A stretch of 60,490 nucleotides of DNA, the filler included, from Dugesia japonica (lineage: Eukaryota): NCBI GenBank assembly GCA_001938525.1. It is 6 parts of 6 records of this genome, joined end to end, with 100 filler letters (N's around TTAATTAATTAA, not from the genome) between each part and the next. Parts side by side here need not be neighbours in the genome. Positions count along the whole stretch, not along the records: positions 18,414 to 27,617 come from MQRL01611635.1; positions 27,718 to 36,455 come from MQRL01193815.1; 4 more parts are not named here. The stretch is one strand, 5' to 3'. Shown here in pieces: positions 8,720 to 56,539 of this stretch. Position numbers and translations under genes: made by a program. The stretch's first letter is position 1. The number at the start of each line of letters is the position of its first letter. A model generated the notes under the pieces. The model saw nothing but the letters and a program-made list of their open reading frames with translations. It searched no databases and was not told where the DNA came from.

Positions 8720-8868
8720 TGTTGGGTATTCAAACTCAACAAAAGATTTTATGGTTCGTATAAAATATAATTAAGATTTTATGGGTGTTAATTCCTTTAT
8801 CTTTATATGTGTGTTGATACGGTATTATATAAATGATATATGACACTGTAAATAAACTGATATAGTGT
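8720..8868 (-). repeat. LTR fragment of the family at 31636 and 27718
   Basis: Shares GGGTATTCAAACTCAACAAA, TTTTATGGTTCGT and GGGTGTTAATT with those copies. No PBS follows it. Confidence 0.75.
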
Positions 8869-8968: not shown

Positions 8969-10892
8969 TATGATAGTGAATAATAAAATTGAGATACATT
9001 TATTTATATTGAGGAGAAGAAAGTGTACATCTCGTTTGATTTATGGGGTTCAAAGATTCAATGCAATAATTTCGCAATTCAATGATAATAGGGACATCTT
9101 TTGAATTCCGAAGAATGGAGAACGGGAAAGGATGGTGGTTTCTGACTGTCATCTTCTCTGGTTCTCTTTCTAGGAATGGGGACGAAACAATAATAGGGCG
9201 CAGGCCGAAAAATCGTGATGAATTATGTTATTTTCGAATTTATTTCATGCATTGCTTTATTTCTATTGAAATCTGATTCTAATTACTAAAATTGATCATA
9301 ATTTATTAGATGCATAAAACTAGACGCGCAAGCAGAAGGCCCCGTTATATCTGGCCATATATAGACGACAGCGGGCGATATTACATCGAATGGTTAGAGG
9401 TCTAGGAGATGTTGAGGAAAGAAAAAAGGTGAAATATTCAGCTTGAGGGCAGATCTCGATGTTGCAAATCTGCGAATCGCAATTATGGAAGCAAACCTGC
9501 ATCTGCTTACAACTCAACGGGATCGACTAATGGCGATTATCGAGGAGACAGTGCAGGCAACAACTACGAAGGATAATCGTCAGTCCGAAGCAGAGATGGA
9601 ACATAGTACTACCCCGGATGAAATTCTGGAATCGCAGGCTGAGGAGGAGCTAGCGATTATGAGGGATTTGATGGGCCCGAGCGGTGCTATCACGTCTCTG
9701 GTTGTAAATAAAAATAAAAATTGGCTAATTAAGAGATTTTGTTGATTTTATTTTTTTTTATTGATGGAATAAGAGAAAGTGATATGTATGTCACGACNNN
9801 NNNNNNNNNNNNNNNNNNNNNNNNNNNNNNNNNNNNNNNNNNNNNNNNNNNNNNNNNNNNNNNNNNNNNNNNNNNNNNNNNNNNNNNNNNNNNTTTTAGT
9901 AAAGTGAAATGAGTGATAGTTGTGGGATCTCGATGTGAAAAAATAACAAATATGAATTTCTGAATTCGAGTGTTCTTATATTGCCGTTTTAATCTTATGA
10001 ATGGCATTGGTTAAAAGATTAATTATATGGTTTTGACTACCTATTTAGTTCGGTTATAATATTAAAAGAATTTACACTGTCATTATACTTTAGTGAATAA
10101 ATCTCAGGAGAATCGAATATCTACAAAAGATGTTATGGATATCCAGAAGAAAGACGCGAACTGCGAAATGAGATACCAAAAACGAAGGAAAGTACGCGCA
10201 ATTGAAAGAAAAAGAACTCGCCCTCCAATAGGCCAACAGATTGATGGCGGAGGTGATAAAAATGTATGCAGATCGGGAATTCACAATGTTTCACACGCTA
10301 CGAACCTTGTGGTTAAATTATCAGCCGTCGAAAGAAGGCTGATGGTGGATTCGAGGAGAGGAGGCGACTGTCGCTGGAAATTTTAATGTTAAAGCTGTTA
10401 AATGACGAGTTATTTAAGTATTAGCGGTTATGTATGATCATTTTTATTAATTATGATTTATTAGGAACAAATACTGAGCAAACGAGAGAAATTGTAGCTG
10501 GGGTTCATTAATAAGAATGACAAGACGGGATTCCACAAAGTCGCGCAGAACCAGAAAAATGAGGAGCATGTCACAGAGGTGACGCAAATGCTTGTGGTTT
10601 TTAGGTATGCCCCTAGACGAGATAGGTCAGATTCATTTATTTACAAAAATGAGCGGTTGTGAAAAGTGCAGAGATTAAATTCGAATTATTCAAAATCCTA
10701 AAAACCCAACAATTATAAAAATTCAATAATTATAATCAATAATTATAATCAATAATAATAATAATAATCAATAATAATTGTAATTATAAAAATTCAATAA
10801 ATTAAATATTTTNNNNNNNNNNNNNNNNNNNNNNNNNNNNNNNNNNNNNNNNNNNNNNNNNNATATATTTATTAAACTAAATTTAAATAAAT

Positions 10893-11061
10893 TCATTTTG
10901 CAGATGGATCCCAAGCTTCGATCTTTGGTCTGGTAGTCGAATAAGGTACATATTCCTTAGAAGTTCCGCTCATATTATCTTGATGATCTATCATCCACTT
11001 TTTACTATCCAATGGTTTGACTGTTGGAGGTTCATCGCACATGTAATGCATCCAGCGATGC
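10893..11061 (-). CDS. NDUFA12: Last coding exon of NADH:ubiquinone oxidoreductase subunit A12
   Basis: After an AG acceptor it reads (W)HRWMHYMCDEPPTVKPLDSKKWMIDHQDNMSGTSKEYVPYSTTRPKIEAWDPSAK*. This matches the NDUFA12 C-terminus (WHRWLH..D.PP, N.SGT..YVPYSTT..KI..W.P). Upstream exons were not found. Confidence 0.9.
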
Positions 11062-11859
11062 CTTTAAATGAGAAATAAGAAAAATTGTGAAAATATTTAA
11101 TATACGGTTAAAATAATAATTATTGATAAAATATTATATAAAATAATAACGTGGGATTTCTATAGTTTCTATCAAATTTTAGTCACGATTCACTGGTCAA
11201 TTTAAACATGTCAAAGTCACTTCATATTTTTTTATCATTATAAAATTATAATTGTTAGATGAATCAGTAACATTCATCTTTGCATTAAAACAATTAACAC
11301 TTTTCATTCCAATATTTATTCAAGACAACACAAAAACACAAACTATCATCTTGTTTTTTTAAACAAATTTTTAAAACAAGCTAACGTTTTTATTTAATTC
11401 TGACCGAAGTTATTTAAAAATATTCAAAACAATAAATTTAAAAAATTAATCATTTTACAAAATTTTATGTTTAACAAAAANNNNNNNNNNNNNNNNNNNN
11501 NNNNNNNNNNNNNNNNNNNNNNNNNNNNNNNNNNNNNNNNNNNNNNNNNNNNNNNNNNNNNNNNNNNNNNNNNNNNNNNNNNNNNNNNNNNAAACTATTT
11601 TCGTTAACAACTTCGGTCGAACTATCAAAAAATTTAACTCTCTAAAACCATACTCAAAATAATTATACTAAGTTAATACAAAAAATTTCGATTTTTGTTA
11701 TTCTAAATTTTGGTTAAACTAGAGCAGCCTACTATACACAACCTATAAAGAATAAAATTGAAAGCGTAAACAAAACCCCAGGAAAATATAGAACAAATTA
11801 AGAAACATTGAAATAAGAACAATCTATCATATTTAAGGAAACGGATAAAATAATAAAGA

Positions 11860-12020
11860 ATTCATTTAAAATAAAAGCTTCGATAAAAATTTGTTTTTCT
11901 GGATTTTGAAAACAATTCTTTACTTCGAATTTGTATTCTTCAAGAATTGAATTTTATAAATTCTGCAAAACGATCAATGTTTACGTCCAACAATTATTCT
12001 CGCAATAATTGAAATTGTAA
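11860..12020. repeat. Penelope pLTR-derived repeat with a degenerate inverted hammerhead (11914-11948)
   Basis: Similar to 40800-41030. Contains the hairpin CAATTATT-CTCGC-AATAATTG at 11991-12011. Confidence 0.65.
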
Positions 12021-13849
12021 AAAATAGAAAAGAATTAATAAAAATAAAAAGGAATAAGAAAAGTTAGAAAAAATACAAAAATTTAATACAAATAATAGTT
12101 GATTCTTAATGAATAATAACAATAAATTATGTTACAAGAAGCATTAAACATGAAAAATAACAATAAACCAAAATCAATAATTTGGAAAAAAATAGTATAA
12201 TGCATTTCTGCATTAATACTATTAATAATTCNAGATTAAAATAATATTGATATTAAATTTTCCAAATATGGGAAAAGCCGACAGCGATCAAGAATATAAA
12301 CAATATGAAAAACAAATGAGAAAATAATTAACAAAACAAAAAACCCAAATTCAAAATCGGAAAAGAAATTGTCGATTCGGAAAAAACAAGAAGATTACCT
12401 GAAATTCTGAAGAAAACAATTTTAACACCTTCACGAGTAATGGTAAAGGAATTTGGACTAATCGACCAATCAAGTGTTGCATTTAAAATTTACTAACCAA
12501 AAAATTATGCCAAAGATGTAACCAAAAATAACCCTATAAAGGGTATAAGAAAATGCAACCTGTAATGAAATCAGTTTTTACCCATTTCATTGCAATTTGN
12601 NNNNNNNNNNNNNNNNNNNNNNNNNNNNNNNNNNNNNNNNNNNNNNNNNNNNNNNAGCTTCTCTAATTCATTATAACATGCAAACCAACCGAATTTCACA
12701 TTTAATTTTAATTATTTCAACGGCTAAAAAGTGGAATTTATAATTTTAACTAAGGTTTTCAAAATTTTAAACAAATATTATTAGGTATTTTTAAAAAAGC
12801 GTAAATTTTTTAATGTTTTAAAATATTTCTAAAATTTTAATTATGAAGGTTTTTTTAAAATTCAATGTTTATTAGCGAACGTTTTTAAAAGAAAATTTTT
12901 AGTTAAAACTTTTTATACAAATTTTTAAATTAGAAATGTTTAAGTGCAAAAGTTTTTAAATGATAATGCTTAGTTTAACATTTTATACAAATTTTTTATT
13001 TGAAAATTTCTGCAATGTAAATGTAAAATTCAATTAAAGGGTTTTAAATATAAATGTTTATTGTAAAAATTATTTCATTTTTTAATAAATATAATATAAT
13101 AAATATAATAATAAATCAGATAAAATATCAATTGCAAAATGTAATTTTGGGAGCATACGTCAGAAAGTCAAGAATAATTTTAAAGAAACTAATTATCTGT
13201 ATTTTAATAAAGTTTTGAATTGAAATTGTTTATTGTAATTTAATTAAATGAAGAAACCAAATGGAAATAGTCTTGATTTAAATAAATTGTTTATTGAATA
13301 AGTCTCGGTTGTAATTCTCATTAATTAAAAAATTAATACTTTACGTATACGGAACAAATTTTAGTTTTATGTGATCATAATATCCAACGACGTATTTTAA
13401 GAACAATATTTTGTATTAAGGGATTGTCTTACAACCTTGACCATGATTTCATTTTAATGATCCGGGATTTTACCCCAATAACAATTTTTTACATTTCATT
13501 AACAAATTTTTATTTTTATATGTCGAAAATTAATATTAAATTTTATAAATGTAAGTAAAGTGTTAGTGGTGCACGGGCACCATACCCCCCAGGATTACAT
13601 AAGAGGATTAACTATTCCATGTACATTTAGTTGGGACTTTTATTACGTCATATTAAATAATGATTACGTGATTGCTCCCATTTTTTAATGTATATTAGTT
13701 GGGACGATATTTTTTACGTAATATGTGGTAATTAATTATGTAAGTGTTCCCATTGTTTCATACAGTTTTATATAATCGGTTGAATTTTCACGAAAGTCCG
13801 GTAGAAAAGCCCATTTTNTTTAAATTTTTAAAAATAATTCAATTTTTCA

Positions 13850-14122: not shown

Positions 14123-17068
14123 TTGGGATCATACAAATGCATAAGCACACACAAAGACAATATAAATAAAAGACACATATTCAGTCAAATCCTCAGTCAA
14201 TTATCTGCAAACAGGGCGTGCTCGAATCAGAAATCAACAATGTAATCCAACAATCAAATCGTGATCATTAAGACATTAATTTTGAAACAGTGAAATTCGA
14301 CAATCAACTTGTGAACATTTAGACATTAAATAATATTTGATTTTGAGCGTCTTTGGAGTTTTATGCGGGCAGATTGTATTATTATTGTTATTTATTTTAA
14401 GTACAATTGTAATCTGTAGATAATAATTATGTTCTATTTTAATGGCTATGATATTCGAAAATTATTTATTTTAAATTTAATTCAATGTTCTATTATAATT
14501 TTGTTAGAATGTTTACGATATTCGACCATTATTTATCTTAAATTTGATTCAATTCTGTAAATAATAAATCGGTTTTATTTTAACTTTATTAGAATATCTG
14601 TGCAATCCTACAAATTTTTATTAAATAATTATTAAATTTTATAAATATTTATTTGATTTTCACAAAGGACTGCAAAGGATGTTGAATATACATATGTATT
14701 GGTGTATGTAAAATCAGTATAAATACTGATTCATTGCTTTAGATTTTTGACTACTTTAAATTATTAGTAACTCCGAGCTCTAAGTGAGACAGTATCCTAT
14801 TTAATTTAATATTTGCTTATAAGGTTATTAGTGTTTAAGAATATTCATATACATCAAAAATAAAGTTTTTTAACAAGTGTTTATTTGATTATTTATATAA
14901 GGAAGGATTACATCATATAACCATATTTATACGTTTCAGTAGAATATCAAACATAATACAGTATTGACATAAAAACGCAAATTAAATTCAAACACCCTAA
15001 AATCATTTGCTCATATTTAGTCGACGATAGTTTTAATTACGAACCATAAAATCACTTTGTTGAGTAGAAATACCCAACATAGCAATGCATTAAAAATTGA
15101 AAATAACTTTAAAATGTGCATCAACGGAAGAATATTTATAATTATAATAAAAACAATTAAATGTAAAAAGTTGTTATTGGTATAAAACCCTGTATTCAGA
15201 TTGTGTGATGATACGATATTAATTGTTGTCAAATGAGAAAGTTTCAGCAAAATATATCATGTTATATAGTCAATATCTGCTGGTGTTATTCAGTGATGTG
15301 ATTCAAGAGAAGCATGAATCATTCAACTAATGGCAAAAAAGAAAAAGGATTACATAATTTTGACTTCAGATCATTATTTTCCCACGATAAATTGAAACAG
15401 TTCTTAATGTTAAAATGGATTTCCTTATGCCTTTTGACTTTTATATAAAATAAAATTAATTAGGTGTGACTTTGGTAAAACTACAAGCAAATATATGAGA
15501 ATAAGATTTATAGATTTGAGCATGTTATAAATCAGTTGTCATTTCTATTAACTCTCTCATGGATAAATTAATGGAATGATAAAAACTTTGGTATGGAAAT
15601 GAAACTCAAGTCCAACAGTAACTCTCTTGGTCACAAGATGGCAGCAGTGTGTGAAGTACGTCCATTTGAACATCTTAGGATTTGAATGATAAATTTCAAA
15701 TAACTGCTGATAGGTACTGTCCATTGTAGTAGATTAATAACAATGAACATGATTTAAATATGAATAAATTGAATTATGATATATATTTATGATATTAAAT
15801 GCGATTTCTAATTTTAAAAAAACGAGAAAAAATTTTTTGGCTAAAAAATGTACTTTAAATTTTAATAAAACCATAAACCTAAATGAACATCCCACCTGCT
15901 TAAGTAAATAGCAATATAAACATTGATGACAAGCAAAATTTATTTTTTGTTGTATAATAATGTTGGGATAATCCAACATTAACGAATACAAACGTGCGGG
16001 ACAGAAAGTAAAAAAAATTGAAAAATATTTTAAAAGAAAATAATGTAAAATCATACTTCATTCACTAAGAATTTATACAAACAGAAATACAGATTGAGAA
16101 TGAATCAATACAATGATCCATGATCAGCATGATTCAGTGTGAGATGAAATTTTTCCTATATTCATAATCTGATTCTGAATCCCGTGATATTAATATTTTG
16201 ATTTTAATTTGCGAATAGTTTTTATCCACGTTTTCACCCTATCCCAAATTGTGACATTAATATTTTGATATTTTACGATATGTACTTCTATTATTTATAT
16301 TTTGATACGATGTTTTGATGTTTTTTACCTGTTGTGAATTTTCTATTTTGATTTTGCCTTACCATAGTCTAATATAGAGTAATTTCGGTGATCAAATATA
16401 AATCAAAGCGTGGATCCCATTAATATACGAAGACCTAATGAAGAAGAGTCAGTGAGGGCTTGAAAGAATTTTATTCCAAAATGGTGCTGGGAAATCTACT
16501 CCTAAATAAATAGATTGTAGATTGTTACTGAGATAGTTTTAAGACAAATAAATTATTATGAAGATCTCTGATTTAATGAACAGATCTTCGTTAATGTCAT
16601 AATCAATTATAATATCTAAGAAAAATCAGAATTGAAAGACATGTTTTGTTACCACCATAATATTTTTCATAAATAAAATAAATTATAATGTCACATTTGT
16701 GACAATGGATCTCAAATGACATCAATATAAGATTTTAATAAACTAATTTACTATTCTGATTTATGCTAATGATTTTGTTTTTGCTGTTTATTCTTTTTTT
16801 ATTTTAGACTATCAAATTTATCAACGAAGAAAAAAATTCGAACAATTCTATTNNNNNNNNNNNNNNNNNNNNNNNNNNNNNNNNNNNNNNNNNNNNNNNN
16901 NNNNNNNNNNNNNNNNNNNNNNNNNNNNNNNNNNNNNNNNNNNNNNNNNNNNNNNNNNNNNNNNNNNNNNNTTAATTAATAGAATAATATTTTCCTATAT
17001 AGGCTCTATTATATCTTAATGTTTGCATTATATTTAATTAAAATTAATTTATATTAAGTATACAAGTA

Positions 17069-20639: not shown

Positions 20640-22060
20640 TTACGACGGATAAAGAAGGAAGAGAAAGGGTTGTTACGTATGGATTACACTCAACTACGGG
20701 TCATAAAAAGGATAGTGCATGATACGAAAAGAGTTATTGGCTGTTTATTATTTCTGCATGCATTTCAAACATTACTTGTACGATAGAGGATTTACTCTTA
20801 GGTTAGATCATTAAGCTGTACCTTTTTTAAAGACGACAAAGATACCAATTACATCACAATTTCATTCATGAATTAATTATCTCAATAGTCAAAATATGGT
20901 ATTAGAATTTAGAAAAGAAATTTAATATGGTAATTCAGATATGTTATATAGACAAAGGTGTGAGTTATATGTACAATGTCAATTGTCACATGAAAAGGCC
21001 AAGACAGGGAAAATTTTAACAAGAGTATTGAACACAATTGAAAGGGGAAAAGAAGTGCAATTAACCATTTCTGAAGAAAAATGATATTCTGAAATTACCA
21101 TATCATACAGGAGTTGAAAAGGTTTGCAAATATAATAGAGAAAACACATTTAGAAGAATTTGTGGAGCCAAATACAGGAAATAGTTTGTGGTTCTGAAAT
21201 TTCTCAGAAGACCAAAGTAGTGACATCGGCAACTAAAAAGAAGACAAAAGATTGGAGCCTACCAATTTGTTTGTAATCATATTCCCAGATATATGTGGGC
21301 CAAGGGGGGAAACAAGAGGACAGAGAAAAAACATTTTTGAAATAATCAACCAGTTCAGTAAATATCGGGTTCTTATACACAAGTTGAGAAAACTATAGGA
21401 AAAGAGAAATGGATATTGAGATTTGAAGGCCCAAGAGAGATAAGATTAGGGTGTGAAAAACCTTTTAATCAAGAGTTATGAAGTAGTTTGCACAGAAACT
21501 AGATATTAGGATTCGTGTTTAGAGTTCCTATCATCACAATTAAAACGGAGAAATTGAAAGACGGTTCAGGACAATTTGAGATTTAATTCATGTCAAACTT
21601 CAGAAAAGAAGGTCAACAAATATAGTAGACATGTAAACCAGAAATAAAATTTTTGGTGAACCAGCAAAACAGAATATGAATGGAAAGATCCCAACTAAAA
21701 TCATATTTAGAAAGAAAATTAGCATATAAAAGAATCGAAATAAAGAATCGAAAGTAGAATTATATGCCTTCATCAAGGTAGAAACAAGAAATAAAAGTAA
21801 AGATATATATGACAGTTCTTTTCGTAATGTGGAAAGAATTAGAAAGGTTTTAAGTTGGGGTATATCAGGAACTAATTATGAAGAATAGAAAGAATAGAAA
21901 TGGATTAAAATAATTACTAGTTCTATTTGCTATAATTTTATTTTTAAATTGGTCTTCTTTGTTAATAGTGAATATAATTGTGTGAAAGTAATAGTTCTTA
22001 TTTGGAAAATAAATTATTTTACCTAAAATTTACCTAATATACACAAAGACTTATTTTCAA
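20640..22060 (+). pseudogene. Older, 5'-truncated relative (RH-IN-3'LTR) of the Gypsy family at 3486-7885
   Basis: Colinear DNA similarity to 6370-7800, for example GAGTTATTGGCT.TTTATTATTTCTG.ATGCATTT.AAACATTACTTGTA and AGAAGACCAAAGTAGTGACA. Confidence 0.85.
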
Positions 22061-23080: not shown

Positions 23081-25096
23081 TTAAAACTGAAATAATTTAT
23101 TAAAAAAGATTAATATACAAGAAAAACTACGAATTTCTGCAAGAATTATTTCCAATGATTCAAAATCAGCTGCAGCATCTTTTAAATTCATAGTTGGATC
23201 CTGAAGTTGGTTCTGAATACGGTCTATTTTACCTAGAATGGTGTGCCTGAAGTACAATAGAGCGAGGAAATTAAAGTTTAGAACATTTGCCAACAAATTT
23301 TCTGCATCGCATCTTGTTTCGTGTGTTGCATTTACATAATCTGATAGTTTTTCTAGTAAACCAACCAATTCACCAAGCCCTTCATAAATGACATTAACAG
23401 CTCCTACTCTAGCACTCCAGCGTGTTTCAGATTCACGTTTAACCATGATAGGTACAGCAATTTTTTAGTTGTTCCCGTCGAACTGTTGAACGAGAGAAAA
23501 ACAGATAAATGCTTTCAATTGTGCCAAAGAACGCTACAACCAGTATATCCTGTTTGGCTGAGTGAACTCCAGCCAAGTGCAAACTGTGATTGTCACAATT
23601 AACAAACAGGGCTAAGTGGTTTCTAGCACAAATCGTCTGTTGAAGATCAGATATATGTCCAGTCATCAGGGCCGCATTGTTATAACATTGTGACCTACAA
23701 TCATCTAACCATATGTTGTCAGATCGCAAATTTCTCAATTAAGACTGTTTCAAGAGTGGCTGCATCTTTAGCATGTATCTCGATGAATCCAAGAAAGATT
23801 CTTTTATATTAATTGTTTTCTTTTCAAAATCAATATCTACAAATCGGATGACTTCAGACAATTGTTCCCGGTATCCGAGATAAGGATATGAATCTAGCAA
23901 TATTCCATAATATTTATTTCGTTTTATGTCTTTCAGTATCTTATTTCTTACATTACATGCCAACAAGCCGATAAATTTATTTTGGATTTCTGGCGATAAG
24001 TACGACACTGATCCTGGACTTTCTCTGGCAAGTTTTAGATGACTTTCCAAAAGTGGGTCATATTCTGCAATGAGCTTGAGTAGAGAGAGGAAGTTTCCGA
24101 CATTCGTTCCAGCTTCAGCTATTAAACTTTCGTTCTTTCCACGCAATGACAAGTTTTGAGAAGCGAGGAATTTAATGCAAGCAAGTATATTTTTCTCGCC
24201 ATCATTGTTTCTCTGTTTAAATTTGTGCTTAAATAGCAGCATTTATAGTTTTCCCAGCAATTATCCTTCGCTCATTTTCTTTCCATGTAGTAAAAGATTT
24301 GCGATGACTAGGGCTCTTATCAACTTTTTGGGTTTTTTCCACTTGCTAAATCGAGATGCCAATTCAAATGAAGACCGAGAAGTGAACAACAAACAGCAAA
24401 AACAATAAGCCGCTTTATTGGATGGCAAATAAAGTAACCACGATCTATTCAATTCTTCTCCGGTTACAAGTAGTCGTATAAACCATGCTTTGTTTCTTGA
24501 ACGTCCACGCGGTACTGAAAATTGAAAGTCTTCATTTTTAAACAGAATTGATCCATGAGATTTAAGTTAAATGCGAAGGGATTGCGATACGACCGAAAGT
24601 TGCGTCTCACGATCAAATTCTAGGTATGCAACATCATGGAACAACAATACCACTGGAATAACGTCTTGAGTAGCAACTAAGGTTTTATCATCGGATGAAT
24701 CTTTGATATTCTGAATTTCATCTATATAGTCAATTGGTTTGATAGCTCTGTCATTTGCCTTGGTAGCTACTGAGTTTTCGTCATCAGATGTATGATGCAC
24801 CTCGAAAGAATAATCGTTTTCTTGACTCTGACTCTCATGTTCAATTTGTTTAGCAGTATCGTCATCTATATCAATAGCAACCAACTAATTTGTGTTAAAT
24901 TCCTCGTGCAAAGAACTATCCCCTTGAGGTTGTTCAACAGTCTTGTTAGTAGCAGGGACATCGTCTTCTGACTCAGATTCGCCTGACTAAGCTTTTTAAA
25001 AATGTTTTTGAATAATTTACTGGATTTCTTTTCTGCTTGCTCAGCATTTTTCTTCCCCTTACGGCTTTGCGCCCCGCTCAGTTTTCTACCAGACAT
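23081..25096 (-). pseudogene. hAT transposase of the Tip100/ZMYM1-like type, frameshifted and 3'-truncated
   Basis: RSWLLY..AYCFCCLLF (TTF zinc finger), FLASQNLSLRG, GNFLSLL, YLSPEIQN, EQLSEVIRFV, CDNHSL, ETRWSAR. Confidence 0.9.
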
Positions 25097-26080: not shown

Positions 26081-29000
26081 TGTTGGGATAAAACACACCA
26101 CTAATGAGAAGACAAGGCTACCACATATCATAAAAATAATTAAAGAAGGAACATAATCCTAGTTATAGATGGAAAATACACCAAAGATGGTTAAAATAAG
26201 AAGTAGAATAAAACCAGGTTGGAAACCCCTTAGTGGATGAATAGAAACACAAAAAGCCAGTGAAAATAAAACCGGGCAATTAGAACCAGCATCCACCCAT
26301 TTTAATTAATTAGAAGAAATTATAATATATTATATTAAGAGAAAAAGAAAATATCTACTAAAATATTTAATTATGGAAAAAATATTAGTTGATTACGTAT
26401 TAAAATAAATAACAATTAAGTCCAAATCTGTTTTCTTCAAATAACCTTACTCCAGCAAATCACAGAGATTCGAAGAAAGAAAATTTGAATTGGGAATGTT
26501 ATCAGGCAACAAAATTTCTTAGCTAAAAACCTTGGCAACCATCAGGAGGCCCGCCACAATGGTTGAAAGTTTGAACCAATGAGAACCTGGAAAATAAACA
26601 TATAACAAAAGCTCACCTGATAATCCAAAAATAACTGCCAACGTAATCACAGAAAAATCCACAAAATTTCAGAAAAGTGGCATCAACGCCAATGGAAATG
26701 CATTATTTTAAATTAAAAATAACTAGCCAATGCCAAATAAGTCGGGGTGTCTCAGAAAATGGTATAAAACCCCCCCGAATTTTAGAAAAATATACACGAT
26801 AAGCACACCAAATTTGTATTAACATTTGTACGATATATTTGGAGAAGAAAACCATAACGAGAATACTCAATTTTAATACAACAATTGCGACGTGGTAAGA
26901 TCAAAGATACTGTTCAATGAATTAATCATAAATTGTCACAAAACAATCAGGAAAAGCCCACCGCTATTTACATCGTTATAAATGAGATTACCAGATTGAA
27001 TTCTACTGTGGTAAATTGTCATCATTATCATCCCCGGAGATTACTGTTGCAGAAGTCATATTTACTACGATAATTTAAAGTAAATTTTTGTTATTTTATG
27101 TGAAATAAATAATGTAATAACTATTTCTTATTAAATGTTACCATGCAATTCAATTTTCTTTGTAAATAATTCAGAAGTTGTTTTCACCATAAAATATTTC
27201 TTAGGATTTCCCTTCACCCTAATTTTAGTAACACTAATAAACGAGAAAATGTGTCAAGATTAAGTGGTTGAGTGTACAATATAGATCAGTAGCAGAATAA
27301 AATGTGTGTAAACAATTTTCTGCGCAACATCTAACGACACACACTAGTACGATTACCGTGATAATATACTACCTATGAGTTACAAATAGCTAGCAACATT
27401 CATCGCACACTACGTTATGAAATATAGCCGGGTTGCCAGGTAACCATGTCACGCAAATATTCAATTGTTCGATTTTATTGAATTGACAAAGGATTTAATT
27501 GAATAATTTCTAGTTGATAGGCGAAAATATTCGAACATCGTTATTATAAATCTTCACACTCTTAATTAATAAATTTCACAAAATATATTATAAACCAGTC
27601 ATTAATGGATGCATTACNNNNNNNNNNNNNNNNNNNNNNNNNNNNNNNNNNNNNNNNNNNNTTAATTAATTAANNNNNNNNNNNNNNNNNNNNNNNNNNN
27701 NNNNNNNNNNNNNNNNNTTAAACTCAACAAAGTGATTTTATGGTTCGTGTTTTATAACTCTAACAAATAATATACGTTTGTGATTTTACGGGTGTTAATT
27801 TTACCCATGTGTGTAGTAAGGAATCTCCGACTATTAAATCCTTGTAATTGCTGTACACTTTTTGGCACGGGAAAATCTTGAACAGCTTTCACTTTTTCTG
27901 GATTTGATTCTAATCCTTTTGATGACACAATATGTCCGAGAAATAAAATACTTTCCTCTGCCCATTAACATTTTGTGGGTTTTAATTTGATATTTGCTTT
28001 TCTGATTCTGGACAGTACATTTTCTATGTTAATTAAATGTTGTTCAAACGTTTCGGATACTATCAGTATATCATCCATATATACAACTACATGTTCTACA
28101 CCGGTGAGTACTGTGTTCATTAATCTTTGAAACGTAGATGGTGCATTGCATAATCCAAATGGTAATCTGATAAATTCATATAGTCAATCGTCGGTACAAA
28201 ATGCTGTTTTTTCTCTATCTTCCTCCTGCACTTGAATTACATTATAACCCTTATTGGCATCCAGACTTGCAAAATACTGCGCAATCATTAATTTATTAAA
28301 TTACTCGTGTATCTTTGGAAATGGACGTGTATCTTTTTTTACTGGTACTATCGTTGATGCCCACTGAGAAAAACTATCCTGTATAATTCCATTTGCATTT
28401 TGTTTCGCTACTTGTCTTTTTATCTCCGGTCTCAACACATATTGTGCTTCATATGGTCGCTGTTTTATTGGTCTAGCATCACCTATGTCAAATATATTTT
28501 TTATAATATTTGTTCCTCCCATATCAAATTCATGTTTAGCAAATGNATCCTCATATTTATCCAATAATTTCTGTAGCTGTTGTTTTTGACTCATTGTAAG
28601 ATTTTTATTGGTTATTTTTGGTTTTTGTAATACTTTGTTTGTTTTGGTTTCATTAACTCTTTGTCAGCTAGTTTTTAAGTTTTTCCCCGTTGACCCAGTA
28701 TAAGTTCGAGTAGTTCGTGATTATTTAACTGACTTGCTTTTCTTTCTGATTTCCTATTACTTTGATAGTCAGATGAGAGTTGTTTATTTTTCTCTGTAAA
28801 TTTATTTTCTTTGGCTTTTCCTCAGTTACAATTTCATATATTTTATATTCATTACCGTTTTCAAATAATCTACCTAATTTTGTATTTTTCTGGATAAGCA
28901 CATCATAATTATTATAATTTGCTACTCTCATTGGTATTATACCCCACTTTGGTTCTACACATCCAGGCATTATTGATAAATTATGTTTTTTTATTAATTT

Positions 29001-29685
29001 ATCATTTAGTTTAAAAATATATGAATTGTTATTTTGTAATTATGTATTTATAGGTATTATACATTCACTACAGCGTTCTACTGCTATTAATTCTGTTGTA
29101 CAAATTTCATTATACTCAGCTTGTACTGGCAATGGCGTTACCATTTTTAATGTGCTATCTTGTAAATCAATAACATAACCTTTTAACCTTGCAAGAAAAT
29201 CCATGCCCAAAATACAATTCTGTCTTCCTTTTTCGATAACTCTAAATGGATGTGTAACAATCTCATGTCCAATTGTGACCGTACACTCAATTATGCCGTT
29301 TGTTTTTATTATATGACTTGTAAATGATTTTATACCCTCTGGTTTATAATTTTTTATTTTTTGTCTTTGGGATTTACTTAACCATGATTCTTTTATTATT
29401 GAACATACTACTCCTGTATCTATTAATGGAAGTATACTGATTCCATTTATTATGATGTCTGTTGTTGGTCGATTATTGTCTGAAACTATAACTGATATTG
29501 GATATTTTTTTAATATTTGTTTTGTGTTGTATCATCTATTTTTGTTTGCTTTAATTTGATGTTTTCATGTTCATATGCTTTATATTCAATGTCTGATGAT
29601 TTTTATTTTTATCATTAATTAATTTGGTTAATTCTTGTTCATCGGATATATGCCTCTATGTTTCTCTAATTTTTTTATTTTTTCA

Positions 29686-31519
29686 CTATGGTTTTGCACA
29701 ATCATGTGCGATGAATGGACAGAAACATGCTCCTAGGTTCCAAGTGTAACCAAAAGCTGCATGTAATTGTCTTAGAGAAAGAATTTGATGACCTGCTAAT
29801 TTTAAGAATGTTAATACATACCACCCAAATAAAATACATGAGAATATATTGCCAAACCACTGTATTCCACCCAAAAATCTATCTACGAAATTACACATTG
29901 CCCTTTTAAAATGATCTGCGTGTAACAGTGATTCAAATTCACATAATCTCCATTAACTACTTTATCCACGATTACTGATATTATTTTCTCTCTTTGTATT
30001 GGAAAAAGCATATGCCTTCTTGCTTTTTCAATATCGTTAATTGTATAGATATCACGATTTTCNATATTATCAATTCTTTCCGTTTCGGTTATTCTGCTGA
30101 GTTTTATCATTTCCATCATCATCGGAGTTGGTGCTGTTTTCCTATCCAATACTGTTATCCATACTTCTTCAGTTAATTTATCCATAGGATCAAGAATGGT
30201 TATGCATTTTTCAATCACCTATGGTTGATAGTGCTTATCTGTTAGAATTCTTGTTATTGGAAGCAAAAATACTTTTTCTCCTTTATAAATTACTGGTAAT
30301 TCATTAGTANNNNNNNNNNNNNNNNNNNNNNNNNNNNNNNNNNNNNNNNNNNNNNNNNNNNNNNNNNNNNNNNNNNNNNNNNNNNNNNNNNNNNNNNNNN
30401 NNNNNNNNNNNNNNNNNNNNNNNNNNNNNNNNNNNNNNNNNNNNNNNNNNNNNNNNNNNNNNNNNNNNNNNNNNNNNNNNNNNNNNNNNNNNNNNNNNNN
30501 NNNNNNNNNNNNNNNNNNNNNNTGTCTCAATATTTCATGATATAGAAAGTCAATTTTATTATTGAAATAGGTAGCTATTCTTATATCTAATTTATCTACC
30601 TCTGGTCTGGCATCTTTAATTTCCGTTGTTGATAAATATAGACCATTGTAATTAGTTACTTTTACCGCCACATCACATTTAGTATCTGTTCCTTTTTCAA
30701 TAAGTCTTAATGCTTTTTGTGTTGAATTTTATATATACACTGTTGGTGTTGCCTTTTCATTAATTATTGTTATCTTCCTTTTTTATCTCGGATATTAGGT
30801 GGCTTATCAGTTGGTTGAGTTCCACTAACTACTCTCATTGCCACTGTTCTTAACTTTGTGAGTGTACATTCAAATGGATTTACTTTATATGTGATCATGA
30901 ATTCTCTGGTATCACAACTTGTATCTTTTAAGCTACAAAATGGGTATGTCATCATTTTCCCCGTAGCTGCGTTGAATGTTGCTTTTATGTTTTTCAATTC
31001 GACATGATATTATCTCCTGACCAAGATATCGGCTTTTACCTGTTCCCATACTCTATAATTTCCTCTTCCACAGTATCTACTTGCTGTAGACCAAACTACG
31101 ATGTCTATTCTTTGTTTCACTCTTGCACCAATTCTCACTTGTAGCTCATTACCATGTACTTTTAGAGTTTTTGTTTTAAATGCTGTTTCACAATCACTTG
31201 CATCTACTTTCACTATGTCTGGAGACCAGGCTGGAATTAGTGGTATGATTTGCGTAGTGGCATAATATGATACTTCTTCTTTGAATTTTACTCTACATTT
31301 ATAAGCATCTGCGTGTATGAAATTAGATTCCTGATATAAATGCATAATTATTGGATTTAATATTTCTATCTTTGAGGGATGCACTTCTGGACAATTTTCT
31401 TAATCCAATAGTGAATATTTTTTACCCCATTTTGGAGTATTATAATCATATGCTACTATAGCATTTGCTCCTCTTGTTAATTATAATAACATTATTATTA
31501 TTGTTATTATTGTACCCAT
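29686..31519 (-). pseudogene. env: Chuvirus/herpes gB-like (class III) envelope glycoprotein
   Basis: Signal peptide, then IVAYD..YSLLD..CP, YQ..AYKC, YFNNKIDFLY, NELPVIYKGEKVFLLPITRILT, IYT..DI...R..LFP.QRE and a C-terminal TM region (WFGNIFSCILFGWYVL). This is the motif order I recognise from chuviral glycoproteins. Has stops, frameshifts and an N gap. Confidence 0.8.
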
Positions 31520-31613
31520 TAGTGGCCGATTTGATTTTTTCGTTTAATTATTACTGAGTTTCTTTATTTCATCTTCCTGTTCTGTTGATTTTAATACTTT
31601 TAATTATTTTGAT

Positions 31614-31631
31614 TCCTGGTTCGCAGCACCA
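31614..31631 (-). promoter_or_regulatory. Primer-binding site, probably tRNA-His
   Basis: TGGTGCTGCGAACCAGGA, 4 nt after the LTR end. It resembles the complement of the tRNA-His 3' end (TGGTGCCGTGACCAGGA). Confidence 0.65.
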
Positions 31632-32479
31632 AATTTGTGGGGTATTCAAACTCAACAAAGTTATTTTATGGTTCGTGTTTTATAACTATAACAAATAATA
31701 TACGTTTGTGATTTTACGGGTGTTGATTTTACCCCTGTGTGTATGTGGATACAATATTATATATCGGTATACAAATATATTTCCTATTATTGACAATCTT
31801 ATACGCAGTAATTAAATTTACCTGAGTACAGCTTCCCTGAGAGGTCAATGTCTCTGTAAATAAAATGCTTGCCAATCTACTGAAATATATCAGTATTTAT
31901 AGTAGTTTGATTACAATACAACTGCCACTCAGGCATTNNTCAGTATCAGAATGATATTTAAAATTTTTACAAAACAAAAAGATTTTTTTTACAAAAACTA
32001 CTTAAAAATACTTATAAAATTATAATAACATTTCTTTATCAGACAAATTTTAACACATTTATTTCAACATATTCAAAACACCTGGATTTTCTCAAAATAT
32101 GGATTTTTATAAAATATTTCATAAAAATTTTCACCTGTCAATAATAATATTATCTATATTAAACTAGGTTAATTAAAAATAAAATAAATTCAACATCAAA
32201 ATGTTTAAATCATAAAATAAATAAATTCAGTTCGAATTAAGAATGAGATACATCGATAATATAAAATGTTCAGATTATCAATTAAATTGTCTAGATAAAA
32301 TTTGCATCCAAATTATAGTATTTGATTGCTCTGGATCTGTGTTGGTTGATGATTTAATGTTTTTTTGAGGCTCTGGATCTGTATTGATTATTCTGAGGCT
32401 TGATTGTTGATGATTTTATTTATGTATGTAATGCTGTCGAGTGTTATGTGATGTTGTTGTGTGTTATGTGATCACAACA

Positions 32480-36730: not shown

Positions 36731-39593
36731 CTGTGGAACTTTTCTAAGGTGACCGTTTTTTTTCGACTGTGATCACTTTTTTGATGTTATGCTAAAATCA
36801 CTAAAAACAGAACAAAAACGAATATTAAAATATTTATTTGACAAATATCTAAGAATATTTTCTTTCAGTGGCTTTGCTAACTGAATCAGCTTATTTTCTA
36901 ACTGATATATCTCTCTTAACTGATCAGGGCAGTACTCGGCAGAGTATTCTTTTAAATCATACATAGTTTTATAAATATCATCCTATTCCAAATATATCAT
37001 TAGATTCGGAAATATCTAGTTCATCACCATTGCATATTTGCAGATCATAGATAACATAATTTAATTCATTATCAATAATTTATTTTTTATCTTCGTCTGT
37101 ATTATTTCTTATGATATCTTGTTCTATGTTCCGATGAAATTTCAATATTGTTTTAAAACAATTTGTAATTGTAGTCACCTTTATTTGATGTGACGCAAGT
37201 TTTCACCACATTATTGTATCTAATATCATTACGAATTTGAATATATATTCAATGTTGCAGTTCTTATAAAATATAAGTCTTTCCAGTAAAAGATTTTTTA
37301 AATTGTCTTTAAAATTTTAATGATTTCAGCATCCAGAAGATGAATAAGACTTGTAGTGTTGGAAGGTGAAAATATAATTTTGATATTAGATAAATCGGTG
37401 TCGATATGAACAGTGGAGTTATCCAGCACCATGATTATGTTTCTTTTTTCCTTTTCAAACCTTTGATTAAGTTTTAGCAACCAATTAACAAAAATTTCTT
37501 TTGTNNNNNNNNNNNNNNNNNNNNNNNNNNNNNNNNNNNNNNNNNNNNNNNNNNNNNNNNNNNNNNNNNNNNNNNNNNNNNNNNNNNNNNNNNNNNNNNN
37601 NNNNNNNNNNNNNNNNNNNNNNNNNNNNNNNNNNNNNNNNNNNNNNNNNNNNNNNNNNNNNNNNNNNNNNNNNNNNNNNNCGAGTTTCTTTGGACAAGAC
37701 TCTTTTTAGGTATTGCTTTATAAAATAAAGCAGTTTCATCTCAATTGAATGTGTTTAGAATCATATTTTTGATATATTTCATTAATAGGCTCTAAAAACT
37801 TAATCATATATATGTAATTTGCAGATGCATTATTTCCGTCAAATTTTCTGAAGACAAGATTGTTTCTAATTTTGAATTTAAGCAACTATCCAGAGGAAGC
37901 CTTAAAATTGTCAATATGTAGCTCTAGGGCTGTTTTGAAAGAAAAATCTTGTACCATAGGATCAGAAAAAGGAATGTTGTATTTTCTTAGTCCATCTAAC
38001 ATATCAAGAACTCTATTTTCTATTTATAAATGTGAAATTTTTATTTTAATTTTACTTTTATTTGCACATTAATCAAATCTTTATCGGCCTATAGCTTTTA
38101 GATGGCTGTTTTAGTGTCGCCATATTCTTCGGCCAATTTCCTGTGACAATTTTTTCGTCCAAAGTATTGAAATAATCTCTATCTGATTTTCTGATAATTT
38201 TGCCATTGAATTTTAAATTAAAAATACGCAGAAAATATATTTTGAAAAAAAACTTTCTACTTTTTAATTGTCAATTTCGACCGTGTATTTTTAATTTCAA
38301 CATTTTCAAAATTAAGTAAAATCTTTTTAAAATTTTTTTTTATCAGTGGTAACTTTTTTGCCAAATGTTGACCTTAAAACCTAAATATTCCCGTATTTTA
38401 CAAACAAAAATTAAAAGTGGTCACTTTCAGGAAAGTGGTCATTAGGGCATAGAGTACAGGAACCGGAGCTAAAAAAACCTTCGGTACTCCTGGTACTAGA
38501 ACACAAAAAACGAAATTTTGCAAAAATATTTGAATATATAAATTCCATAATATGTAGTAATTTAACTTTTTATTGATTAAAAAAAAATCAATATTTGTAT
38601 TATGCTTTTTTATTCATTTTGATTTCAATTACGTTTTGCTACGTAAAAATTAAAAATTTAGCTGTTAAATGTAAGTAATGTACATTTAATTAGTTTTATT
38701 AAATTAATAGTTAACTATTATTATTTTAGAAAAACTTTTCAATAAACAATAAAAATTCCTCACCTCAGCAGTACTTTAAGAAAGTGTATATTCTGATGTA
38801 ATAGAGTTTTTACATAATCCTAATAGAGAATCAGAGACTAAAATAACATGAATAAACTTAACAAAATGTATTGTGGAATTGGCAGATCTTTTATTAAACA
38901 CGATAAAATCATAGACGAAGTTATTGAACTAGCCAAAAATATACCCGAATTTAGCAGTAATTTAACATTAAAGGAGAAGTTAAATCTTATGATTCAAAAG
39001 AAAGTTTCTTCTAAATTCGAAACCAAACACACTAAGTGATGTTCAACTAGTTCTTTATCTCAAATTATAAAAAAGGAAATTAAACTGCTTATTGAACAAG
39101 GCACCAAGGGGAATAACTTAAAAGTTTTACTATCAATTCCTCAAACTAGTGTAGAATCAGAAAGAGCATTTTCAACAGCGGGACTATTTTGCACTAAGAT
39201 TCGGTCTAGTTTAAATGATACTACATTAGATTGTCTTTGTTTTTTAAGATCGTTTTTTCTAAGCAATAATTATAACCGTTTTAATAAAAAAAATTTTAAA
39301 AAAGCATCATTTTAAAGTCGACTATTTATATTTTCATAAGTTATTTTGAATAGCAGATTCAGATTGTGACCAAAAAAATTTGATGAAAAAATATTCAATT
39401 TTTGATAGATTAAAAAAAAATTGAAATCAATAAATATTTATAAAAAGCAATATTTTTTATATTTATTTTATGATTTAAAATTTTCTTATCGAGTACCGGT
39501 NNNNNNNNNNNNNNNNNNNNNNNNNNNNNNNNNNNNNNNNNCAAGCGCTAGTGGTCATCAATATCGGGTGGTCATGTTTGAAAGGTTCCACTG
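36731..39593 (-). mobile_element. pogo/Tigger transposon, decayed, interrupted by a hAT
   Basis: TIRs CTGTGGAACTTTTCTAAGGTGACC and GGTCATGTTTGAAAGGTTCCACTG with TA flanks. DDE-region motifs MVLDNSTVH and PSNTTSLIHLLDAEIIK. Confidence 0.8.
38443..39550 (+). mobile_element. Non-autonomous hAT element with 8-bp TSD
   Basis: GTGGTCAT is duplicated at 38435-38442 and 39551-39558. Ends TAGGGCAT and AAGCGCTA. Dimerisation domain LLSIPQTSVESERAFSTAG..RSSL...LDCLCFLR at ~39125-39260. Confidence 0.88.
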
Positions 39594-45804: not shown

Positions 45805-46634
45805 ACNNNNNNNNNNNNNNNNNNNNNNNNNNNNNNNNNNNNNNNNNNNNTTAATTAATTAANNNNNNNNNNNNNNNNNNNNNNNNNNNNNNNNNNNNNN
45901 NNNNNNTAAATGAAGATCTCCAGAAAGAAAGAGATGAAAATAATATAAATTTAAGAAAATTAAAAGAAAACCTAAAACCAGAAAAAGTTTAATCATTTTT
46001 AGTTAAAGGAAATTATAAAGGTAGTAAGAAAATAAAAATGACCCAAAGACGTTTCGATATTTTAACTCAAGATTTAAACAGTGATGATTTTTTAACAGAA
46101 AAATATACACGTGTATCAGCCAAAAAGGAAATTACTGGAGCAGATAGAGTATACGTTTAAAAAAATAATAATAAATGGATACAGTTTTCTATAAAATGTT
46201 AAAAGAATATAATTTTAAAAATAACTCTTTACAAAACTTTTGTAAAATTAATAGTGTTAATGAGAAAACAGTAAAAGAAATATTTAAAGAAATGGAATAT
46301 TGAATATAACACTAGATCATGGGACCCTTCTAGATATTTACAAAGAAATTCAAATGGAAGTTTTATTTCTGTAATTGATAGATTTGAAAAGAAAGTTACT
46401 GTTGTTAAAATTGATAGATTTGAAAAGAAAGCACTAACAATTAAAATTGATGTATTAAAAAATAAACTAGGAATTAATTATATTGATTTTGTTCGTGATA
46501 TGGAAAAATAGTCAAATATAATCATGCAGTAAAGTAATGTAATGTAATGTAACATAACGTAATGTAAGGTTTATAGTAAGGTTTATAGTAACGCAAAATA
46601 AAAAAACACACACCACTAAAAAAATTCTTTAAGA

Positions 46635-48084
46635 ATGATAGATTTAGATAATGATTTTGAATTTGCATATACGTTAATAAAAAATGACATACTTAAAATT
46701 TCACCTTCATCAGGTTCGATAAATAATTTAAATGCAAGTGGTGACGTTGTATTTCAATCTCTCTAATCTACAAACCCACTTGATATTTGCAATTCACTTT
46801 TATACTTTAAAATTAAAATTACAATTCCAGATGCATCAAAAGATAAAATAACATTAGAGAATAACATCTTTCCAAGTTTATTTAAATCAATGAGATTAAC
46901 ATTACGTTCAACAGATGTAGAAACAATAAATGATCTAGGTGTTATATCTACGATGTTAAATTTAATAACTACAAGTGAAACATGGAAAAAAGAATATGGA
47001 CAATTATCAGGATGGTTACCAGATATAAATAAAGGAGACACCGATGTAAAAACTTAGGATTGTAATATTGGTTATTATAACAGAAAAGAACTTTATAAAA
47101 ATAATAAATTTGAAGGTTACTTTCAATTAAGAAATCTATTTGGTTTCATGCAAAATTTTAATAGAGTTTTATGCAATACAATGATAGAGTTTACATGTAA
47201 CAGACAAATGAATGATAAATTATTATTTTATGGAGATGCCGCAGCTACAGCAACATTAAAACTTTTAACACTTGAATNACACATTCCAGAATATAGATTA
47301 TTACCAAAAACAGAATTAATTTTACTGGAAAGAATAGCAACAAATAAACGAATTCAAGTTTCATATTTAAATAGAATAACTGCTAAATCAAATTTAGATG
47401 CAGGTGGTTATTATTCAATCAAAATTAGTAGTCTAGCATATCAACCTAGATATATTTTTATTTGATTAAAAGATACAGAAATTTCATTTGAAAAAAATAA
47501 TAATCTATTCATTCAGAAAAGCACAACAATCACAAAAGGTGTTGCACCAGCAGCAGATGTACCCAAAATCATTATTTAAAAAGTATGCAGATACAATTAA
47601 ACAATTCTTATTACCCAATAAACGAATGTAAATTTAATATTNNNNNNNNNNNNNNNNNNNNNNNNNNNNNNNNNNNNNNNNNNNNNNNNNNAGCAACAAA
47701 TAAACGAATTCAAGTTTCATATTTAAATAGAATAACTGCTAAATCAAATTTAGATGCAGGTGGTTGTTATTCAATCAAAATTAGTAGTCTCTTAAATCAT
47801 GTGAAAAATTAGTAAAATGTTGTCATGATTTTTTAATAGAACCACAATTATCACTTTTAGATTTTGGAAATTTATATCCAATATTTTGTTTTCATGTAAG
47901 TGCTCATGATGATAAAATGAATATTAATAATGTTGATGTTACACTTCATTTAACAAAAGATCCAGATTTTAAAGGTGCAATTTACTGGTGTATACTTGAA
48001 GAGAAACATGTATAAATGAAATTGGCCAATAGTAAAATTGTTATGATAGAAAATTTAAGAGGAGTTGAATTTCGTGTTAAATAA
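46635..48084 (+). pseudogene. Maverick major capsid protein (double jelly-roll)
   Basis: NLNASGDVVF, ITLENNIFPSLF, ETINDLG..TM..L, GW.PD, N.GYYNR, QLRNLFGF and PRYIFI. Has frameshifts and stops. Confidence 0.8.
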
Positions 48085-48650
48085 ATGTCATCGAAGTTTA
48101 TATGTGAAGAATGTGGAAAAATAATCTTAAAGAAAAATAAGTCAAGACATTTAGATTTATGCATTAATAAAGTAAAATTTACTTCAGAGTCAAGACATTT
48201 AGATTTATGCATTAATATAGTAAATTTTAAAGGTAGCAACCTCGAGCTAATTAGAGCACAAACCGGAGGTGACTTACAAAATTCAAAAGTAATATCTACA
48301 TTATTAAAACCTTTCACTTGGGAAAAGTATCCTGGAGAAAGACATTTATTTCAACATAATTACACCGTTCCAGGAACTAGATTAGATATTAGAGAGGACA
48401 CCGAAGGTGTTACAAAACCTAGAGAAGAACCAATTAATAATGTTGATGCAGCGGCTTTAAAACATGACATTGCATACGCTTCAGAAGATCTCCGAGATCG
48501 ACATATTGCAGATGTTAATTTAATACATGATTTGAATAATATTAAAAATCCAACATTAACAGAAGAATTTCAAAGAGCTCTTGTAAAATTAGCAATGAAA
48601 GGTAAAATAATGATTGGTCAAGGTCAACATAAGAGAAAAATTATAAAAGA
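48085..48650 (+). CDS. Zn-finger-like N-terminus plus parvovirus-type phospholipase A2 domain
   Basis: CEECGK..RH, HNYTVPGT (YxGPG loop variant), PINNVDAAALKHDIAY and RHIAD. Confidence 0.85.
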
Positions 48651-49482
48651 NNNNNNNNNNNNNNNNNNNNNNNNNNNNNNNNNNNNNNNNNNNNNNNNNN
48701 NNNNNNNNNNNNNNNNNNNNNAACATTTTAGAAAAGTCATCATTCATGAGAAAGATGATATTTGGTCTGCAGATTTAATATTTCATGGTATTAAACGAAA
48801 AGGTAAAAATGTAATATTAAAAGTTATAGATCTTTATACAAAATATGCTTTTGTTGAACTTTAAAAAAATAAAACCGAACTAGAAACAAGAGATGCATTT
48901 AAAAGAATTCTAGATAAAAGTTTAAGAACTCCAAATAAATTATGGACTGATGAAGGTAAAGAATTTTAAAGTAAAGAATTTAAACCTTTCTGTAAAAAAA
49001 ATAAAATTGAAATGTATACAACTGAAAATCATGGTAAAGCAGTTGTAATTGAAAGATTTAACCAAACATTTAAAAACAAGCTCTTTCAACATTTTACTGT
49101 CGTTGGAAATCAAGATATAAGCCAAGCGCTTTTAAATAAAATTGTACATGAATACAATAACACAATACATTCTAGTATTAATGTTACATCTCAAGAAGCA
49201 ACAAAAAATCCAGAAAGTATTAACCTTAAATCTGTTAAACCTTACACTGAGACTCAAAAGTTTAAAATAGGAGATCGAGTACGAATTACTAAAATTGGAA
49301 AAACTTTTCCTAAAGGTTATACTTTTAAATGGTCAAAAAGAATTTATATTATTACTAAAATACATCGCGAAACTGGCCTACGGACAAATCATGAGCCATT
49401 TACTTATGAAATCTCAAATCATAACGGCAACAAATTTTTGGGGAGATTTTATAGTAATGAATTACAAAAAACTTTATTATAA
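48620..49482 (+). pseudogene. Maverick retroviral-like integrase
   Basis: DDIWSADL, VIDLYTKYA, LWTDEGKEF, IERFNQT, YNNTIHSSI, FKIGDRVRI, KGYT..W and FYSNELQK. Two in-frame stops. Confidence 0.93.
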
Positions 49483-49707
49483 ATTTAATATGTTAAGATC
49501 AAAAATGGAAAATATTAATATTTTTGATCTTCTTTTAGAATTAGAAAGGTCAGAAAGGAAAAATGATGAATCTCATATTGAAATTATTTTATGGAATATG
49601 GAAGATGAATTAATTAACATAGAAGAAGAAATAGAAAAAATTTATGATGAACTATTTGCGTTGAAATTAAAATATGACATGTTATGATTAAAAAATAAAA
49701 CCTTAAA

Positions 49708-51159: not shown

Positions 51160-51634
51160 AAGAATTTTTAAAATCTATGCATTCAACATCTCTTTCCACA
51201 ACTATAAAAAAAGAAGATGGTTTAGAGAAATCTAATAAAACTTTATGTGTTACTGACATACTAGATGAAGTTTATATATCATTAGATAAAAAAACCATTA
51301 CAGGAATGATGTTGTAGATAAATGTAAACAAATTAGTTTAGTAGCTTACATGAAATTAGGAAAATTATTTATATTATTAAAAATGCATTTTAAAAAGAAT
51401 TCTGAATTTAAAAATTATTCAGCTGGAAAAGAAATTTATTTTTCAGATAGACATATTCAAAAGTTAATTCATTTTAGTAGATTAGCAGATAAATATCCAA
51501 AGATAATAAATAGTAAATTATCATTTTATAAAATTACACTTCATTTTAAAGAAATTGAAGAAATCATTAATTTTAATAATCAACAGATTTTTTAATGCGC
51601 TTTTTAGACCAACGGGATGCATAAATCTCAACAT

Positions 51635-52510: not shown

Positions 52511-52713
52511 TTTTTAAATATTTAATTTTAGTTATTACAATTTTCTCAAAACATTTTTTATATTTAATTTCAATTTCATCATCATCAGATTGTAAATGAT
52601 AAGTTTTACAATCAACATCTTTAACTTCTACTACTAATTCTTCTTCTTCCATTTGTCCGTAGGCCAAGCTTTGCTATTTCTATTATAACAATTTTAATCT
52701 CTCAAGAAACATA

Positions 52714-53309: not shown

Positions 53310-53312
53310 TTC

Positions 53313-54016: not shown

Positions 54017-54052
54017 TCTTTCTTAAATGTAAAATATCGGTCACGCCGTGGC

Positions 54053-54801: not shown

Positions 54802-54990
54802 GTCCGTAGGCGCGTAGCTATTTCTTATAAATAAAATATTGACATCAGCTCACGCGTGAGCCGTTTATTATGTTTTCATGTTTTGTGTAAAATGTTTCAT
54901 GTTTTTATGTTTTTATGTTTCGTGTAAAATGTTTGAGAACATTTTTAAAAGCCCACTTCGTAAGCCGTTTATTTTTTTAAATATTTAGCT

Positions 54991-56531: not shown

Positions 56532-56539
56532 TTCTTATA

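Follow-up and report, generated by a model that had tools for sequence, protein, structure and literature searches.

A dead Ty3/gypsy element of Dugesia japonica with a gB-type envelope gene before protease and reverse transcriptase, probably derived from a gag-env-pol lineage

Introduction

How does a long terminal repeat (LTR) retroelement come to carry an envelope gene (env) at the place where gag would be expected? This question is raised by a Ty3/gypsy element on the minus strand of a 60,490-nucleotide (nt) stretch of Dugesia japonica DNA (assembly GCA_001938525.1), referred to here as the window. The window consists of six scaffolds joined by linkers of N (TTAATTAATTAA core) starting at 8869, 18314, 27618, 36456 and 45807; parts that are neighbours in it are not genomic neighbours. 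The scaffold carrying the element ends at 27718. A preliminary description of the locus, made from the sequence alone, had offered two explanations: descent from a gag-env-pol lineage, with deletion of gag in this copy, or a gag-less element that supplies a fusogen and borrows Gag in trans. Our results favour the first. With a probability of about 0.78, the locus is a dead Ty3/gypsy copy with a glycoprotein B (gB)-type env before protease (PR) and reverse transcriptase (RT), descended from a gag-env-pol element by deletion of gag after insertion.

Structure of the element

Read on the minus strand, the domains follow each other in the order LTR, primer-binding site (PBS), env, PR and RT. This order had been proposed before and was borne out by profile matches and by the sequence itself. 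The features are as follows.

31636..31915, minus strand: 5' LTR; 3' end (31636) firm, 5' limit uncertain (about 31850-31915)
31611..31631, minus strand: PBS, 21 nt, behind a 4-nt spacer after the LTR end; its complement resembles a transfer RNA (tRNA) 3' end
31520..31610, minus strand: leader, 91 nt, in frame with env, 2 stops
30782..31519, minus strand: env segment A, signal-like hydrophobic stretch and N-terminal ectodomain; 3 stops; PF24664, E 3e-11
30523..30782, minus strand: env segment B, frame changed; 1 stop; PF24664, E 0.001; tblastn 32-48% to relatives
30310..30522, no strand: assembly gap of 213 N within env; its length matches the 73-74 residues missing in comparison with five relatives
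29940..30309, minus strand: env segment C; 1 stop; PF24664, E 5e-12; tblastn
29581..29940, minus strand: env segment D, frame changed; membrane-proximal part, transmembrane region and tail; tblastn with relatives
28716..29489, minus strand: aspartic protease and PR-RT linker; 2 stops; PF13975, 29.6 bits, E 1e-6
27833..28714, minus strand: Ty3/gypsy RT, end truncated; 4 stops; RVT_1, 98.6 bits, E 5e-28
27720..27815, minus strand: second (3') LTR remnant, starting mid-LTR and joined to RT; cut by the contig end at 27718

All of these lie on one strand, as described before; the claim of a single contig did not hold because of the gap inside env. The 5' LTR terminates in CA at 31636, and its part from 31648 to 31743 recurs at 27720-27815 with 92 of 96 nt identical. 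Contig depth drops between 31823 (670-1630) and 31869 (52-126), which bears on the 5' limit of the LTR. Two LTR pieces, the 3' one partial, and a PBS 4 nt behind the 5' LTR are thereby present, as in Ty3/gypsy elements. Related LTR 3' ends at 8720-8831 (70%) and 15027-15079 (83%) terminate at the same point. No PBS was found behind either of them, and they are solo or 3' LTRs of sister families. The complement of the PBS shows CCA and an acceptor and T-arm pattern, which we take, from general tRNA anatomy, to mark a candidate primer tRNA. A 9-mer from the PBS gave no match across seven supplements of PMC13524379.

The RT is of the Ty3/gypsy type. Its best match in the PDB is the Ty3 RT (E 2e-36), and among the 120 RT matches listed those specifically named are gypsy-type polyproteins. 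Membership in BEL/Pao was rejected on account of this RT. Protein relatives carry labels of the style P0001 in the following, and L001 and L002 are metagenome loci. The PR-RT linker region is colinear with P0011 and P0012, the distance between env and PR matches that in P0012 (both by tblastn), and a deletion near 28333 has removed 20 RT codons that P0012 retains. PR and RT stand in the order usual for Ty3/gypsy; ribonuclease H (RH) and integrase (IN) are absent here, and the full order PR-RT-RH-IN is found in relatives. Neither RH or IN nor a polypurine tract was detected between RT and the 3' LTR piece, in agreement with the RH-IN loss already noted. Target-site duplications at the 3' side are hidden by the contig end at 27718. 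The absence of a capsid gene was also confirmed: 12 upstream stretches from relatives, gag or accessory in nature, served as tblastn queries, and none matched at E<=0.05 within 27718-32300.

A class III fusogen in front of the polymerase

The env ATG lies at 31519, 91 nt after the PBS, close to the 95 bp first estimated. Env-like segments extend to about 29581-29700, and the protease begins at about 29489. PF24664 (Monjiviricetes fusion glycoprotein) matches env in three colinear segments with 42.4, 17.5 and 44.9 bits, covering profile positions 4-213, 241-321 and 398-510; at the cutoff of 27 bits two of the three pass, segment B alone being below. Segment D was found with P0003, P0004, P0007, P0008, P0011, P0012 and P0013 as tblastn queries. 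The flanks of the assembly gap are 220 nt apart, compared to 222-225 nt in all five relatives measured, and this near-equal spacing indicates that the join across the gap is colinear.

Segment A was folded with X at the stops and aligned with 31 relatives. The resulting AF2 model had a mean pLDDT of 82.7. Its best viral Foldseek matches are chu-like glycoproteins (E about 1e-11, query TM-score 0.55-0.64 for the first four). The PDB structural matches listed are all class III fusogens (herpesvirus gB, Dhori GP, GP64 and VSV G), the best of them with an E of 4e-4 and TM-scores being low. The env product is a class III fusogen of the herpes simplex virus gB type, and the chuvirus/gB-like character assigned to it earlier agrees with both the profile and the structural comparison. 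Conserved cysteines are missing at two sites in segment A.

The structural matches could be explained by a recent capture of a chuvirus glycoprotein gene that replaced gag. Segment A is, however, only 11-18% identical to the top ten viral structural matches, compared to 23-41% for retroelement-borne env over most of its length (phmmer); by sequence, the relatives of env are retroelement proteins and not viral ones. A hand count against the env of a published errantivirus, Smed_errantivirus_3, gave 86 of 185 positions identical (about 46%). Furthermore, the env-PR arrangement is common to intact relatives. A recent capture is therefore largely refuted and very improbable. Further searches added little: neither env segment A nor the protease open reading frame (ORF) found a match in word-based protein searches, which is weak evidence, two viral-contig scans gave no relative, an Atlas search gave no usable match, and a PDB sequence search with env gave a single weak match to an unrelated protein.

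Relatives with gag upstream of env

A phmmer search with env gave 50 matches, of which, among those scanned, P0029, P0037 and P0038 are unrelated proteins; a metagenome scan with the alignment A4 gave two loci. At least 128 in-frame residues precede env in 16 of the 29 phmmer matches that cover the env start, one of these 16 (P0033) being fused to an unrelated host domain. Seven long N-termini were inspected, and CCHC knuckles were present in five (P0004, P0010, P0012, P0013, P0026). P0010, P0013 and P0026 have a Gag-like N-terminal region in common (E 1e-12 to 1e-20). P0026 is a single ORF with the order gag-env-PR-RT-RH-IN. In L002, a 999-residue zf-CCHC ORF lies directly before env in the same frame, with one stop between them, and L001 holds a frame of 3,426 residues with env-PR-RT-RH-IN whose 5' end is open. 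Env precedes PR-RT in all five relatives having both (P0011, P0012, P0020, P0026, L001), and a FastTree phylogeny of 127 RTs, but not an IQ-TREE phylogeny of 44 of them, groups the RT of the window with exactly these five (SH-like support 0.84).

Several of these relatives contain additional domains. A Bcl-2-like stretch lies just upstream of env in P0003, P0008, P0010, P0022, P0032 and P0045; PF00452 matches P0003 and P0032 below its cutoff, and the stretches of P0003, P0008, P0010, P0032 and P0045 are alike in blastp, P0022 having only a short motif. Such a stretch has been published for Burro (PMC6431247, in the portion consulted) and is seen here in smaller gag-env-pol elements on metagenome contigs. 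Two or three protease-like domains occur in the env-first polyproteins L001 (2-10282), P0004, P0008 and P0011. After its integrase, L001 has a separate DEDDh-type exonuclease ORF (10617-12107; RNase_T, E 1e-5), and by eye P0020 seems to have a similar exonuclease-like stretch before env. P0012 (HBK71150.1), a gag-env-pol polyprotein of 2,627 residues, is on deposit under the name hypothetical protein in a Flavobacteriaceae metagenome-assembled genome; its presence in this bin is likely to be eukaryotic contamination.

State and abundance of the family

The six coding segments contain 11 stops in all, and the reading frame shifts at four places (near 30780, 29940, 29580-29490 and 28715-28760). 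This copy is dead and cannot make an env or pol protein.

Contigs and reads were placed from three DNA runs (three studies) and one RNA run. On the stretch, 4,623-5,137 contigs per DNA run were placed, most at less than 95% identity, in env and pol alike. Thousands of contigs across env and pol indicate that the family is abundant in the host, the summed contig depth not being equal to copy number. In each DNA run, 22-27 contigs lie over position 31554 in the leader (summed depth 5101-6579), indicating that the leader is family sequence. The best 24 of about 14,590 pieces and the best 24 of 1,550 loose ends were tabulated. In all four runs loose ends are found at 27829-27833, where other copies run on into sequence other than the LTR piece present here; the 3' loss is thus not common to all copies. 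No RNA dataset is listed for the stretch itself. In the one RNA run, of which about a quarter was sampled, 187 reads were placed, 137 of them less than 90% alike and one at 99% or more, indicating that they stem mostly from other copies. A depth drop between leader and PBS, obtained by bin arithmetic, was set aside because summed depth swings tenfold between neighbouring sites (in X1, 479 at 31526 and 5101 at 31554).

Probable loss of gag and its alternatives

The gag-env-pol order of the relatives together with the other losses in this copy makes deletion of gag the best-supported explanation. The architecture itself is found in relatives; for the family of the window element a gag is presumed by analogy with them. 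The deletion would fall within or beside the leader. As correctly noted before, leader and env share a frame, although the leader contains two stops. It had been considered a possible remnant of the Gag C-terminus; a pre-env linker is more likely, since in relatives the zinc knuckle is separated from env by long accessory stretches. The leader is thus likely to be a remnant of the polyprotein stretch that preceded env.

The intact lineage would have had one long frame, running from Gag with zinc knuckle(s) through accessory domains and env to PR-RT-RH-IN, with env beginning at an internal hydrophobic signal of the polyprotein. Its tRNA-primed RNA would have been packaged in a Gag particle, and the class III fusogen is predicted to permit cell-to-cell entry. 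One deletion, spanning 1.6-3 kb of gag and accessory coding as sized in relatives, likely fused PBS-proximal sequence to the last 60-90 nt or so before env. Another took away RH and IN together with the polypurine tract and the beginning of the 3' LTR, and the copy also acquired stops, frameshifts and further, smaller deletions. In its present form the element would not be copied by reverse transcription.

Several observations weigh against a deletion of gag in this copy. The PBS is intact. Among the 29 matches covering the env start, 13 begin within 40 residues of the env signal, these being known from protein only, and no CCHC knuckle was found upstream in P0020 and P0022. Compared with the pre-env linkers of 17 relatives, the leader reached at best 2 of 300 shuffles, which is not significant after 17 tests. 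The RT phylogeny that had been proposed as a check is divided: the grouping with env-first relatives obtained by FastTree was not recovered by IQ-TREE with 44 of the 127 RTs, where the ultrafast bootstrap (UFBoot) around the window RT is 39 or less. As to coverage, none of the listed pieces or loose ends lies at 31590-31640 or spans the PBS-env junction. Finally, no gag-bearing copy of the element's own family is among the listed pieces.

Part of these observations would also fit a gag-less LTR-PBS-env-pol-LTR subfamily that was amplified by borrowing Gag from intact partners while supplying fusogen and polymerase, the present copy having decayed later. Such a subfamily would account for the intact PBS with an ATG and signal-like stretch 91 nt behind it, for a leader common to many contigs at 31554 and for the env matches that start at or near the signal, and it has a precedent in plants with BARE-2 (PMC13570524, in the portion consulted), which likewise borrows Gag. 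However, no second copy with the PBS-env junction is among the listed pieces, L002 demonstrates that a gene call may begin at env though gag lies directly upstream, and this copy carries 11 stops and at least two other deletions and is missing RH and IN, the polypurine tract and some of the 3' LTR. Intact cis-acting ends are lacking, RT being joined to mid-LTR without the tract. Because env and pol are broken and the 3' end is gone, the gag-less supplier of the preliminary description has gained no positive support, and we consider it unlikely.

Alternatively, the junction might be an artefact of assembly, in which LTR-PBS and env from two different copies of a very high-copy family would have been joined. 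The window is made of short gapped scaffolds with 41 runs of N, the family is as highly repeated as the contig numbers indicate, the best run contains 0.38 of the sampled words from 30523-31936, and the junction is spanned by no listed piece. Against an artefact, the length of the N gap in env is as expected, there is no N within the PBS-env junction, and the 96% likeness of the two LTR pieces suits one aged insertion. Furthermore, a contig of 276 nt in X1, possibly the source sample, is identical to 28541-28816 (0 differences). A misassembly thus appears improbable, and deletion of gag is retained as the explanation of the locus.

Further mobile elements in the window

A Polinton/adintovirus-like element occupies 45907-60490. 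It has a double jelly-roll capsid at 47058-47465 (PF21738), a PLA2-like domain at 48085-48864 (PF08398) and a long repeat-rich ORF at 49699-51159; ORFs resembling integrase, packaging ATPase and polB by eye gave no Pfam match at 0.001. Decayed gypsy pol fragments lie at 391-7400 (integrase 391-1032; RT-RH-IN 5224-7338) and 20700-21600. By RT distance they are unrelated to the env element, and no env match was found nearby. Transposase remnants are of the Mariner type (PF01359, 33458-34205), hAT-like (DUF4371, 23081-24884) and pogo-like (DDE_1, 37298-37705).

Comparison with known systems and significance

The expectation that env follows pol, on which the preliminary description was built, proved incomplete, as env between gag and pol has been published (PMC13524379; PMC6431247). 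Statements on these papers refer to the portions of their text consulted. Errantiviruses of Nematoda, Bryozoa and Platyhelminthes with gB-type env have the order GAG-ENV-POL (Chary and Hayashi, eLife 2026, PMC13524379). This group is not monophyletic, and two mites with the order ENV-GAG-POL are described as well. Six elements of Schmidtea mediterranea, with 1-215 copies each, belong to the same survey. Like Smed_errantivirus_3, the element of D. japonica has a gB-type env upstream of pol, a Ty3/gypsy RT and a multi-copy family; the Smed_errantivirus_3 group is intact with gag, RH and IN, whereas the copy described here lacks these and has many stops. The env identity of about 46%, which covers domains I-II, env alone being compared, indicates a sister family and not Smed_errantivirus_3 itself. 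Both this env similarity and the low G+C would fit a planarian host. A PBS is present here, whereas none is tabulated for the six S. mediterranea elements in the portion of PMC13524379 consulted.

The planarian element Burro (GYPSM1) has env in frame between gag/BCL2 and protease, with matches to mononegavirus-like fusion glycoproteins and thousands of copies (Arkhipova and Yushenova 2019, PMC6431247). Its giant ORF with MATH, BIR, ankyrin and BCL2 domains comprises about 4,900 residues in more than 30 kb total, compared by description with a 4.2-kb remnant with an apparently short LTR here; decaying Burro fragments have been noted in Dugesia japonica (PMC6431247). Non-canonical endogenous retroviruses of nematodes (Sacco et al. 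2022, as cited in PMC13524379) also have env before pol in Metaviridae, a likeness by description only. With its gB-type env upstream of pol, and with gag and intact ORFs lacking, we file the element as a defective derivative of the GAG-ENV-POL gB-type errantiviruses and not as an intact member. Dezordi et al. are said to have described, in 2020 (PMC7642597), mosquito BEL/Pao elements with a Chuviridae glycoprotein; this is the same broad glycoprotein class but on a BEL/Pao backbone, in contrast to the Ty3/gypsy-type RT found here. For an env-pol helper in invertebrates that borrows Gag, no example was listed in searches that cover open-access papers.

On the most likely reading the locus is of little consequence. 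The published gag-env-pol gypsy group gains one decayed sister family whose PBS is visible, and the family proves to be abundant in its host. If a gag-less subfamily did exist, it would constitute a split two-component invertebrate retrovirus in which the env signal becomes the first translated sequence. Should the junction be common to many independent insertions, it would represent an envelope-supplying helper of animals, whose use of the fusogen would be testable genetically.

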